Shown: piece by piece, positions 13,747 to 32,546 of the stretch
Position numbering within the stretch: the stretch's first letter is position 1
Layout: each line of letters opens with the position of its first letter
Assembly (NCBI GenBank): GCA_038319065.1
Contig: JBBQCU010000001.1
Span: forward strand, 1-32,686
Length of the DNA stretch: 32,686 nt
Reading direction: 5' to 3'
From: Methylococcales bacterium
GTDB lineage: Bacteria; Pseudomonadota; Gammaproteobacteria; Methylococcales; Methylomonadaceae
Made by a program: the position numbers and the translations under genes
Notes under the pieces: model-generated
What the model was told of the DNA's origin: nothing
Database searches by the model: none
What the model saw: the letters and a program-made list of their open reading frames with translations, nothing else

Positions 13747-15129
13747 TTAAGGCAGGAACGATTGTAATTGCCCAAATATGCGCTCAATTTCTAGACTGCG
13801 ATCCGTGATAATACGATTGAGATAGGTGAAATAGCCCTGACGATGTTGGGCTAAACGATAAATACGCTGGATCAATTGCTGATAAAACTTTCTGCCTTCT
13901 CGACGAATAATTTCCTGCTCTAGATAATAAATATCTTCCCATATCTGCCGATTACTCGGGTGATTATCATAGGGATAAATACACAGTTTCGCCGTAAATA
14001 TCTCTAGGGCACGGGCCTCATTGCCTTGGGTATATTCCAACTCACCTAAAATCGTTAACGAGTCGCCGATCCCTTTCGCATATTTGGCCTGAGCCCACCC
14101 GTGCAAGGCCATCTCGGCCTTGCGCTTGGCACGCTTGAATTCATCGTTTTCCAAGAGGATCTTCGCTTCCTCCACCTCAATATTAAGCAGAGCGATTGAG
14201 CCACCGAACGAGCCATTATTAAAGATTTGGCGGGCTTTGGCACGTAGGCTGCGGGCCGCTTGCCAATCTCCCTGCTTGTGGAGAACTTGCGCCGTGCGGA
14301 AGTGTTCAAAGGCTTGATTCGTTTCATTGCCCCACCGCTGATCGATCTGATTGGCCTGCGCAAAGCAGTCTACCGCTCGCTGGAAGAGTTGTGCATTCGG
14401 TAAGGCGCTCTGACCGAGACAGCCTAGATCATAATAAATGCGGCCTAAAAAATGCGGATGCTGAAAACGCTCAATGCCCGCCTCCTCACCGAGCTTAATC
14501 CGCGCGCGGTCCCACTGCGCGGCTGGGCCATAGTTACCTTGATAATAGGCTACCCACGTATGAATCCGATACAATTCTGCCTTTGTATTGGGGTCCATCA
14601 CCGCACCATACGTTTGTTGTACGCGCTCTGCCTCGGTCTGCGCTTGATGCAAATCGCCCAGGTTGATAAAGATTTGCGCAATCATGCATCCGGCTAACGC
14701 AGCTTGGCTGGAACCGGCACCGAATATCTCCTCCGCGGTCCGAAAGAGCGCGATGGCTTCTGCATAGACCTTATGGTCATATTGAGTAAGACCGGCAAGC
14801 ATCAAACGACTCCCGATTTCATACGGTGAAGCGTGCTTGTCCGTCATCAGCATCGTATCGTTACTGAAGGCCAAAGCCAGCGGCAATAAACCCGTGGCTA
14901 CAATAAACGTTTTGCGTTCAATGGCAGACAACGTGTGTTGCAGCACACTATACAACTTTACAGCCGAACCGGCTTCTAAGGTGGTTTCACCCTTCAAAAA
15001 GCGAGAGAGGACGCTAGGCTGAAGCCCGGCTTCGCGAGCTAAATTCCGGAGACTACGCGTATGGGCGGTTAACCAGTCGCGGATAATCTGCCGGGCTTGC
15101 TCTTCAAGGGGTTGATTTAGCTCGCTCAT
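13747..15129 (-). CDS. XRE HTH - TPR regulator
   Basis: GAGGTG SD; SLRNLAREAGLQPSVLSRFLKGE HTH followed by several TPR-like repeats (e.g. IGDSLTILGELEYTQGNEARALEIF). Confidence 0.85.
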   Translation of the reverse strand: MSELNQPLEEQARQIIRDWLTAHTRSLRNLAREAGLQPSVLSRFLKGETTLEAGSAVKLYSVLQHTLSAIERKTFIVATGLLPLALAFSNDTMLMTDKHASPYEIGSRLMLAGLTQYDHKVYAEAIALFRTAEEIFGAGSSQAALAGCMIAQIFINLGDLHQAQTEAERVQQTYGAVMDPNTKAELYRIHTWVAYYQGNYGPAAQWDRARIKLGEEAGIERFQHPHFLGRIYYDLGCLGQSALPNAQLFQRAVDCFAQANQIDQRWGNETNQAFEHFRTAQVLHKQGDWQAARSLRAKARQIFNNGSFGGSIALLNIEVEEAKILLENDEFKRAKRKAEMALHGWAQAKYAKGIGDSLTILGELEYTQGNEARALEIFTAKLCIYPYDNHPSNRQIWEDIYYLEQEIIRREGRKFYQQLIQRIYRLAQHRQGYFTYLNRIITDRSLEIERIFGQLQSFLP

Positions 15130-15167
15130 CGGATCACCTCATCCCACTATCCAGAAGGTCAACAAGG

Positions 15168-15184
15168 TGTTGCTCAAAGCAACA
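15168..15184. promoter_or_regulatory. palindromic operator upstream of the HTH-TPR gene
   Basis: TGTTGCT-CAA-AGCAACA, identical at 32408..32424 upstream of the paralog. Confidence 0.7.
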
Positions 15185-15459
15185 GCAGCCTATTGCAAAG
15201 CGGAGACGCATACATTATTCTTCTAGAATAGTATACTACCAATCACCGAAATTCATATAAATCAGGAAAAACGCCGGGTACTGTTCCCTCTAACTCATCT
15301 GATTGAAAGATATTCCCAGATTATAGAATATAGCAATCCCACGTGAATTCCGAAATCGATAACTTGTGGCAAGGTGGTATTCAGTTACAAGTATTTCGCA
15401 TTTCTAGTCGGATTGCTATAGCTATAAGTACTTTGTGTAGCTTTGTTAAAGGACTTACT

Positions 15460-30100: not shown

Positions 30101-30468
30101 GCATTGAGACAAATTTCGTGCTTGGGTATTTCACATGGAATACTTTTTATTTACAAGAAAGATATTTTTTCTTGAGAAATACGGTAAACGCTCTCATTTC
30201 TGCTTGATATTCAAGCAGTTTTTGACTTCGTTCTTCTGATAATACAATTTCTTGGCATTGACTACCTTGGCTTGCCATTCGGTTTCCCTGAATTGTGAGG
30301 AGTCGATCATAGGCTACTTGTCTCATTTGATAAAACTCAGCCAGCAACTGCATAACTTTTTGTAGCTCTTCCAACTGTGGGCGTTTTATTTCCCTATACA
30401 ACTGTTGGATCTCTTGATAGAGCGGCGCTAGTTCTTCGCCTGGTTCACCTTTAAGCTCGAGAGTTTCT

Positions 30469-30695
30469 GTGACACTCCCATCCCTAAAGGGAATGGGCTT
30501 CTGCCAATTCAACATTGGCAGCAACTTGCACCGTGTCTGGGTGGCTACGCATAACCCGCCGAAGCAGGATACGATACTTTGGTGAACTCTGTTCACACGT
30601 TGAAAATTTTACGTCGTCAACGCTTGCTGACGACAACGCCCTATTTTCAGTTGGTAATGTGCTTGTAAATACGCCACTCTGTGCTGTATCTACAG
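30469..30695 (-). ncRNA. putative stand-alone TnpB-type omegaRNA scaffold
   Basis: Extended -10 TGGTATAAT (30709-30701), then several hairpins (GTCGTCAGCAAGCGTTGACGAC, GTGAACAGAGTTCAC, CCTGCTTCGGCGGG, TGCCAATGTTGAATTGGCA) leading into the right end. Confidence 0.5.
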
Positions 30696-30834
30696 GTGTA
30701 ATTATACCACGAAACAGGATAAAACTATGTTACATTTGGATTACAGTGGCACAACCAACACAACACCTCACCGGCTAAAGCCTACTGAAACCCGCCTTGC
30801 CGCACGGTTAAAACCGCAGGGGTTTGCGGCGGGT
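30469..30834 (-). mobile_element. non-autonomous IS200/IS605-family element (PATE-like), 366 bp
   Basis: Inserted 3' of TTGA with no target duplication. Left-end hairpin ACCCGCC...GCGGTTTTAACCGT...GGCGGGT; right end GAAGCCCATTCCCTTTAGGGATGGGAGTGTCAC ending in TCAC. No tnpA or tnpB. Confidence 0.85.
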
Positions 30835-31279
30835 TCAAGATCTATCATATCTGAGAGTTTATGCGTGCGCGTTCTTAATGTTCTGAGTTCATCGGTTTCT
30901 GGTGTTTGCATCTCTACCCACGGTGCAGCTATGCCACCGTCAAGATGACCTTCACAGGATTGCGTCGTGTGGATGTTAAACAGATTGAGGGCGACTACGG
31001 TATCAAATATCCCTGAATCAATCGGTTTCCCTAATCTGTCCGTCACGTTCCCTAATTGGTCGGCAAAATGTTTCCAAGCTTGTTCCTTTTGGTTCCTTTC
31101 TAAAGCTAAAGCGGTATCGGATGTTTGTGTCCCTTCTGTATTCTCCATTCAATAAGTAGCTTTAGGAAATTCCTAAAGTTTTTGAGTAATGAGTAACGTC
31201 TATAAGTGTAACAAAATTTGGTGGTAGATTCCAGAGAAAAAGGCGCATATCGTTGGCTTACCCAAAGGAGTAAACTAGC

Positions 31280-31984: not shown

Positions 31985-32367
31985 ATTCAATCGCCCTCTT
32001 CATAGTGCGGTCACTTAGACAACTCAAAGACCGCTACCATCAAACGATTGGCCACTTCATAAACCGGCTGCTGCATATCAATGTTCAATCATCTATCACG
32101 ACTGAAGGCCGCCGCCAAGGGCAGTAAATCCATCTTCTCGATGAAATTTTTACGGTCAAGCAAGTTCATGCTCTGTTGCATAACGTTATACACCTTTAAA
32201 GCAGAACCTGCTTCTAACGTAGTTTCACCTTTGAGGAAGCGAGAGAGGACACTGGGCTGAAGCCCAGCTTCCTGGGCTAGGTTCCGAAGGCTACGGGTAT
32301 AGGCAGTGAGCCAGTTACGCACAATTTGTCTTGCTTGTTCCTCAAGAGGTTGGTTTGGCTCATTCAT
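31985..32367 (-). pseudogene. truncated paralog of HTH-TPR regulator 13747..15129
   Basis: Near-identical HTH. Homology continues past TGA 32089 (LNIDMQQPVYEVANRLMVA vs LMTDKHASPYEIGSRLMLA), followed by a second TGA and an apparent frameshift. Confidence 0.85.
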
Positions 32368-32407
32368 AGGATTCCCTCATTATAGGTGACACGAGTATCC
32401 GTGTAGG

Positions 32408-32424
32408 TGTTGCTCAAAGCAACA
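32408..32424. promoter_or_regulatory. palindromic operator, copy 2
   Basis: TGTTGCTCAAAGCAACA. On the minus strand it overlaps a TTGCTT-17 nt-GATACT promoter-like arrangement. Confidence 0.7.
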
Positions 32425-32546
32425 GAAGACGATTGCCAGGCAGCTCCTTCTATGTTACTTTATACTATATAACGATATACTACCTAGCGATTCCTCATAC
32501 ATACCATATACGTCTGTCTACTGTCAATATAATGACGAGTGCATTG

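Follow-up and report, generated by a model that had tools for sequence, protein, structure and literature searches.

The interrupted gene and the inserted element

The window analysed here, a stretch of 32,686 nucleotides, lies on contig C1 of the assembly GCA_038319065.1 (termed G000; 91.7% complete, 514 contigs). On its minus strand, a gene coding for a hypothetical protein without Pfam match (31148-30147; 208 aa when empty) is split by an ORF-free IS200/IS605 mini-element (PATE) of 375 bp, which occupies positions 30469..30843 and is delimited by empty-allele joints, the junction in the host protein and sister copies. The 5' part of the gene comprises 30844..31148, and the 3' part, assigned by reading frame and protein junction, 30147..30468. 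Neither ORF inspection nor tblastn revealed a transposase or nuclease gene inside the element. The sole frame located wholly within it on the sense strand comprises 50 codons and is broken by a 2-nt gap in the sibling element L008, and a short frame in the element resembles the C-terminus of TnpB. Another open frame (30596-30147) extends out of the element and, without a change of frame, into the gene's 3' half, and therefore, a fusion peptide is possible.

Boundaries, target and ends of the element

The original prediction described an insertion of 366 bp after TTGA, and both the length and the target have to be revised. Empty alleles were sought by placing the contigs of four public sequencing runs (X1-X4) on the locus at 80% likeness, and three of the four runs yielded joints that lack exactly 375 bp. 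One contig of X1, possibly the source sample, skips 375 bp with a short side of only 27 letters, one contig of X4, from another study, also skips 375 bp, and X3, a run of a third study, has a joint that skips 422 but holds 47 letters in the middle, again giving 375; no empty-allele joint was present among the contigs of X2 at the locus. Accordingly, the 9 nt that include TTGA are part of the element, and TGAT (30847-30844) is the motif at its flank. Six host-protein homologs, aligned out of 39 intact ones found, all harbour a single residue between LSDM and ETLEL, in agreement with an insertion of 375 bp, since 366 bp would leave four residues.

The target motif TGAT (30844..30847, minus strand) represents the left cleavage site and the predicted TAM. 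In the Caldilineales (Chloroflexota) genome G061, which contains sister copies, all six left ends with the DNA guide CAAA directly follow TGAT (five mini-elements and one tnpB element), and both related left ends with the guide CAAG follow TGAC. That the element inserts 3' of a fixed tetranucleotide and does not duplicate its target, as had been proposed, is borne out by these ends and by the empty alleles: a 3-nt overlap at the window site is absent at the sibling L008, and no real duplication was found.

The left end (30787..30843), recognized by sequence, fold and likeness to the tnpB element L038 (96% across 51 nt of the latter's left end), starts with 5-7 nt that vary among subfamilies, followed by the DNA guide CAAA (30826-30823) and a subterminal hairpin (30822-30800), whose fold z of -1.2 is weak when taken alone. 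Extra left-end bases specific for individual insertions were considered and rejected: four G061 copies at different sites have identical first bases, and the variation thus follows the subfamily. The right end (30469..30501) comprises the DNA guide GAAG (30501-30498), a hairpin and the TEM TCAC (30472-30469), as indicated by the fold and by guide/TEM pairing across families. Hence, the hairpins at both ends and the TCAC terminus of the original prediction are present.

The rule that governs the position-by-position pairing of guides and sites in IS200/IS605 ends derives from work on IS608. Across families, DNA guides and cleavage sites co-vary: four right-end pairs were found (GAAG/TCAC, CAAG/TGAC, AAAG/TTAC and GAAT/TCAA), and the window element combines CAAA/TGAT with GAAG/TCAC, consistent with the pairing principle put forward by Meers et al. 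(bioRxiv 10.1101/2023.03.14.532601). The window element and L008 have a right-end hairpin with a TTTAG loop (30477-30497) and a left end with a TTTTAA loop (30800-30822), whereas the siblings L038 and L011 carry TTTTAA at both ends. The mixed loops suggest an end swap between families, and because of this difference, a fit of the window RNA to the L038 TnpB is not assured.

An IStron was weighed as another identity of the element. Group I introns of IStrons end in G, the window element ends in C, and Rfam matching up to an E value of 5 did not reveal a group I intron core. A cognate tnpA with the ends described above was found neither in G000 nor in G061, where Y1 matches represent fragments or look like another type; mobility is implied by the several insertion sites. 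A contig of 1807 nt (run X5, record 11) joins the right-end core and the left end of the family and has room for tnpA plus tnpB, its interior not being visible.

Sister copies, a cognate tnpB element and the probable source of the contig

At least five copies of the element reside in G061, along with a tnpB element whose ends are the same. One copy is 90% identical and another 83%, in addition to fragments at contig ends, and the five left and five right ends all have different flanks. The tnpB element L038 spans ~1.6 kb and comprises the same left end after TGAT, an RHH gene, a gene for a TnpB of 416 aa and the same right-end core. In the RuvC-II motif of this TnpB, a glycine replaces the usual glutamate and a later glutamate is present, a rearranged pattern known from TnpB2 proteins that are reported to be active (PMC10530073). 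The best solved-structure match is the TnpB-like protein 9b0l. Plasmid and phage collections contained only short right-end or chance matches to the element, and pattern scans returned one unrelated tnpB element and two empty results for viral contigs, one chance match for metagenomes, and one true plus one chance match for genomes.

G000 itself contains a single copy of the element, and no element DNA was detected in 60 of its relatives. The tnpB gene that the original prediction expected in the same genome is absent from this assembly (tblastn with the L038 TnpB matches only the window element), yet it was found in another genome, G061. At face value, the absence from G000 counts against a supply of TnpB in trans; C1, however, is probably derived from a different organism. 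Among the 141 G000 contigs of at least 8 kb it is the most atypical one, its tetranucleotide correlation with the bulk of G000 is 0.53 as compared to 0.77-0.89 for C2-C10, and its DNA has matches in 16 of 151 genomes of G061's family and in none of 150 relatives of G000. Judged by this composition and these matches, C1 probably originates from a Chloroflexota organism and was mis-binned or recently transferred. The tetranucleotide scores set C1 apart from G000 but provide no assignment to G061 (r 0.48 vs 0.53). The host gene was found in none of 151 genomes of G061's order, and a 557-aa neighbour protein has only one weak match among five genomes; a cluster look-up yielded no taxonomic information. 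A loose contig end in X1 carries the same flank as the left end of L038. Elsewhere in the window, two copies of a ~260-bp stretch (14936-15196 and 32174-32436) are 74% identical, the second overlapping a 92-aa ORF (32089-32367).

An omegaRNA-type scaffold

The last ~110 nt of the element (roughly 30579-30469) match the 3' end of the L038 tnpB, with 95% identity over 55 nt; the element is therefore an omegaRNA-carrying PATE. This omegaRNA-type scaffold (30469..30579, minus strand) is close in length to the scaffolds of 106 and 116 nt described for two TnpBs (PMC10278001, PMC10097598). Its hairpin arms change together among the siblings, and the sequence GACAC (30537-30533) is complementary to GTGTC (30475-30471). 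Such a terminal complement of at least 5 nt occurs in 27 of 40 related elements, which are kin and not independent, as compared to 10.2 +/- 2.6 after shuffling and 8.3 +/- 2.6 with swapped tails. As a predicted structure, the right-end hairpin together with this pairing resembles the omegaRNA pseudoknot (PMC10097598). The ~225 nt of hairpin-rich sequence between promoter and right end that the original prediction had noted correspond to ~227 nt from the expected start, and the RNA 30700-30449 has a better fold than any of 200 shuffles (z -3.4). By analogy with the known architecture of TnpB systems (PMC10097598), the 3' flank at 30449..30468 would provide the guide of the window copy, the same stretch (30468-30449) that had been designated before.

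An RNA that binds TnpB (or Nus factors) as a decoy and damps its activity, or a mere by-product of an element surviving by TnpA alone, would account for a G000 assembly devoid of tnpB, and many copies with many guides could indeed dilute TnpB. We consider this quite unlikely, since right-end hairpin and terminal complement are preserved in the scaffold in a manner specific to each family, activity in trans has been reported for stand-alone omegaRNAs (PMC10691335), and C1 is probably not part of G000.

Promoter-like motif and boxA-like leader

The original prediction held that the element keeps only its ends, a promoter and the scaffold, and that its internal sequence is related to tnpB 3' regions. 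The ends, a promoter-like motif and an omegaRNA-type scaffold are present, and the relation applies to the last ~110 nt, but approximately half of the RNA (30700-30580) is a separate leader that is not derived from tnpB. Part of this leader also matched other G061 loci with unrelated ends.

The leader is preceded by an extended -10 promoter-like motif, TGGTATAAT (30701..30709, minus strand), which is invariant in four of four aligned family members. Thus, the internal promoter that had been noted is recognizable at 30709-30701 by its sequence only, but it does not appear in the list of a sigma-70 scan, because the scan demands a -35 box at 16-18 nt. Similar promoter-like motifs lie upstream of 43 of the 47 examined loci that carry the conserved module described below, a count obtained with a loose pattern and no chance control. 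By eye, several mini-elements have a TTGACA-like hexamer 21-23 nt before the -10 box instead of the usual 17 (L020:1430-1465, L022:1430-1465 and window 30733-30701), which may represent a divergent promoter or a regulator site. A 5' hairpin (30664..30694, minus strand; fold z -3.6) resides between the promoter and the boxA-like motif, in a boxB-like position, and is variable or absent in relatives, where the segment from promoter to boxA measures 4-82 nt if the promoter motif was found. In this segment, 15 of 53 leaders harbour an optional AAGGC...GGTTT domain (AAGGCAC...GGTTT, loose pattern), e.g., L011:1670-1740 and L043:1555-1635; the window copy has the plain hairpin only.

Directly upstream of the module, the window copy carries GCACATTACCAAC, and the boxA-like motif at 30650..30663 (minus strand) matches, by leader matrix score, the 16S rRNA leader motif of G061's order. 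A like motif is present shortly after the promoter in all of 30 16S leaders, frequently preceded by a small hairpin; these leaders are the first 30 of 82 genomes with a match and comprise five distinct cores only, and the search motif was chosen after the leaders had been seen. On a matrix built from the 30 rRNA leaders alone, the window motif reaches 21.2 of 26.2 bits, a score not equalled at any position on the plus strand of the first 2 Mb of G000. Hence, a motif matching the rRNA leaders of the probable host lineage is located close behind the promoter-like motif. Among the 47 module loci, 31 score above the best of 13 tnpB loci (11.9 bits) and 16 no better than this control; the covariance model used to collect the loci, R1, includes the boxA columns, and its matches are therefore selected for boxA. 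In the family L098-L101 the first half of boxA is missing.

From the position of the 16S-leader motif and its likeness to the published consensus, we infer that it is boxA. The window motif likewise resembles, in position and sequence, the boxA elements described for E. coli, Aquifex and B. subtilis (PMC5725501, PMC3177189, PMC13753749), and some viral copies appear by eye to be nearer to the B. subtilis form. G061 encodes matches to Rho_N and NusB.

A conserved RNA module and its spread

Downstream of the boxA-like motif, a conserved RNA module (30601..30649, minus strand) comprises a 7-bp stem, an 8x5 internal loop in which GUU and GUAAA are invariant, and a stem-loop of 8-9 bp; a short hairpin follows (30582..30596, minus strand), both arms of which are changed yet still pair in L008. 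The module is defined by covariation and by R1, which was built on 12 module sequences. In 12 hand-picked sequences, 99.4% of the cells are paired and 10 of 15 pairs show double changes; none of 500 shuffles scored as high, and slid controls reached 37-53%. The fitted alignment, with 44 distinct model-fitted rows, gives 98.2% paired cells and double changes at 13 of 15 pairs.

This covariation largely refutes the view that the locus is a decayed tnpB element, the interior being neutral or at most a mobile outward promoter for the 3' half of the host gene. The frame that crosses from the element into the host gene and the short frame resembling the TnpB C-terminus would fit such decay. However, the interior does not represent a remnant of tnpB, its structure covaries from family to family, and the 2-nt gap in L008 interrupts the internal 50-codon frame, so that we regard decay as highly improbable.

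R1 has 19 matches in G061 and 11, 5 and 24 in the other of four related genomes, and it matches only the window element in G000. Matches occur in three of 150 other genomes of G061's phylum and in none of 150 genomes of G000's phylum. Of the 67 matches outside the window, 47 loci were examined: an IS200/IS605 right end lies within 330 nt in 35 of them and in none of 152 control stretches, 7 loci are truncated where the contig ends, and 5 are without a right end. A pattern scan of viral contigs yielded nine module matches, eight of which, by eye, have a promoter-like motif on one side and an IS200/IS605 right end on the other; one match is cut by a contig end, and two of the eight are near duplicates. 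Accordingly, the leader comprising boxA-like motif and module is common to unrelated ORF-free families in Chloroflexota and viral contigs.

R1 did not match any of 14 tnpB loci, and in G061, none of the 19 matches lies on the 13 contigs with tnpB. The module was not found within tnpB coding sequence: a relaxed scan of 13 loci (one further locus had no usable frame) gave seven sense and two antisense matches at unrelated positions. In the rRNA leaders the stem/loop/stem structure is absent; only the boxA part of R1 aligns (best E 1.2). The covariance-model search suggested with the original prediction, run with Rfam, gave no match above threshold: matches to element and module were sub-threshold, the only one on the module being to TLS-PK5 (22 bits against a cut-off of 70), and neither HEARO nor another Rfam family matched at its gathering score. 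Fixed-column covariation did not reveal a pseudoknot in the leader; between the loop and downstream bases a small pairing excess was observed (3.70 vs 3.48 +/- 0.08), and pairing of the near-invariant AAC and GUU bases is possible.

A tRNA scan of 12 loci called nothing. In L057:1690-1750, an apparent 3' half of a tRNA, uncalled by ARAGORN, follows the element and possibly represents an integration scar. The same promoter, boxA and module were also seen in a different ORF-free element type (L072:1380-1890, L076:1380-1890, L057:1380-1640), which has no IS200/IS605 hairpin ends, is bounded near GG and ends in CAGG. By these borders, the elements are possibly of the IS607 type (GG core).

RNA-library contigs

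A sibling element is represented by contigs in three RNA-library runs, all from one study; they cover the equivalent of 30496-30665, without the left end, and extend 47-64 letters past the match at the 3' side, i.e., 18-35 nt beyond TCAC. The left end of the sibling is deeply covered in a DNA run. One RNA contig, provided that it belongs to the L011 type, extends to ~10 nt upstream of where transcription is expected to begin. Transcripts of the window copy itself were not seen. These assembled contigs, which are silent on strand, start and level, provide a weak hint of a sibling transcript that crosses the right end.

A model for guide RNA production and its alternatives

The usual source of a TnpB guide RNA is the tnpB mRNA itself. 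On balance, we find it probable that the 375-bp protein-free IS200/IS605 PATE inserted after TGAT produces a TnpB guide RNA of its own, behind a boxA leader predicted to recruit Nus factors. In this model, TnpA made elsewhere would excise and insert the element via the end hairpins and the guide pairs CAAA/TGAT and GAAG/TCAC. RNA polymerase would start near 30695 and read through the right end into the flank, and boxA would load NusB/S10, thus shielding the untranslated RNA from Rho. Antitermination is proposed because, unlike the translated tnpB mRNA of the full element, this RNA is not covered by ribosomes, and the leader would likely put Nus antitermination in the place of translation coupling. 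The TnpB of a sister element would trim off the leader as it does its own mRNA, keeping the ~110-nt scaffold and the flank-derived guide; trimming of the 5' end by TnpB has been reported (PMC10278001). Finally, empty alleles next to TGAT would be cleaved by the TnpB-RNA complex, and their repair with the filled copy would bring the element back, following the cut-and-repair retention model of Meers et al. (bioRxiv 10.1101/2023.03.14.532601). As a guess, the stem/internal-loop/stem module may provide a handle by which the RNA is processed or loaded into TnpB.

With a length of only ~230 nt and heavy folding, the RNA does not obviously need to be protected from Rho. This shortness is compatible with a working stand-alone omegaRNA, in which boxA and module would contribute to folding (with Nus factors as chaperones), 5'-end protection, nuclease processing or TnpB loading rather than antitermination, a possibility we hold to be unlikely but not negligible. 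The invariant unpaired GUU and GUAAA of the module are missing from rRNA leaders, Nus factors also act as regulators of rRNA folding (PMC5725501), and a TnpB that trims the 5' end of its RNA (PMC10278001) fits a role in processing as well. Yet the order promoter-hairpin-boxA copies the rRNA leader, boxA is reported to be enough for an antitermination complex to form (PMC13753749), and the module is not found in tnpB coding sequences; we thus retain antitermination as the preferred function of the leader.

More broadly, and with a confidence slightly short of even, we envisage promoter, lineage-matched boxA and module as a portable cassette present in several phyla, which was grafted repeatedly, in place of tnpB, onto unrelated omegaRNA scaffolds. 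Elements of this kind would then be specialised guide-RNA parasites and not products of decay; they would mimic the rRNA leader to co-opt Nus factors, and the module would serve processing or loading by TnpB made elsewhere.

Relation to known systems

PATEs encoding omegaRNAs for use in trans have been described by Meers et al. (bioRxiv 10.1101/2023.03.14.532601). The window element agrees with these in being ORF-free, in the DNA guides and TAM/TEM pairing at both ends, in scarless insertion and in the omegaRNA for TnpB in trans; it differs by the leader with promoter, boxA and module, which is shared across families with four TEMs and is not mentioned in the passages of that report that were consulted. 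Mobile, effector-less stand-alone omegaRNAs are reported to function in trans, their biological role being called unknown (PMC10691335). Like the window element, they occur in genomes that also hold effector loci, whereas the account consulted describes no leader. The window element also shares its left end, TGAT and right-end core with L038, which corresponds to the tnpB-only IS605-family elements with an Arc/RHH gene and a TnpB2-type RuvC domain (10.64898/2026.09.24.754181, PMC10530073), but it carries promoter, boxA and module in place of the RHH and tnpB genes. With the boxA signal of rRNA leaders (PMC5725501, PMC3177189, PMC13753749), the element has in common the order of promoter, small hairpin and boxA as well as the motif of 16S leaders in G061's order; in contrast to these, its boxA precedes a transposon RNA of ~230 nt and is followed by the internal-loop module, which rRNA leaders lack.

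The omegaRNA PATE is thus of a published kind, and the addition is a leader that is found neither in tnpB loci nor in Rfam. A literature search covering paper listings and text passages gave no description of a boxA/module leader on TnpB or PATE elements. To the question of how gene-less elements supply guides in trans, a conserved leader in the place of the ORF offers an answer that is concrete and can be tested. If the model is true, guide RNAs of transposons would join rRNA and CRISPR arrays under the control of boxA and Nus factors. The leader also serves as a marker for unannotated PATEs, given 19 and 24 matches in two genomes, and as a natural design for the expression of TnpB guides, and the corrected boundary implies TGAT as the predicted TAM for TnpBs of the L038 type.

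Within many of the elements, short recurrent inserts were noticed by eye (CCCAGAGGG-CACCC type, or with a CGCTTC...GAAGCG palindrome), some of them in frame within tnpB. These inserts, seen at L038:820-845 and in L034, L043, L073, L081 and L092, look like a tiny mobile repeat.
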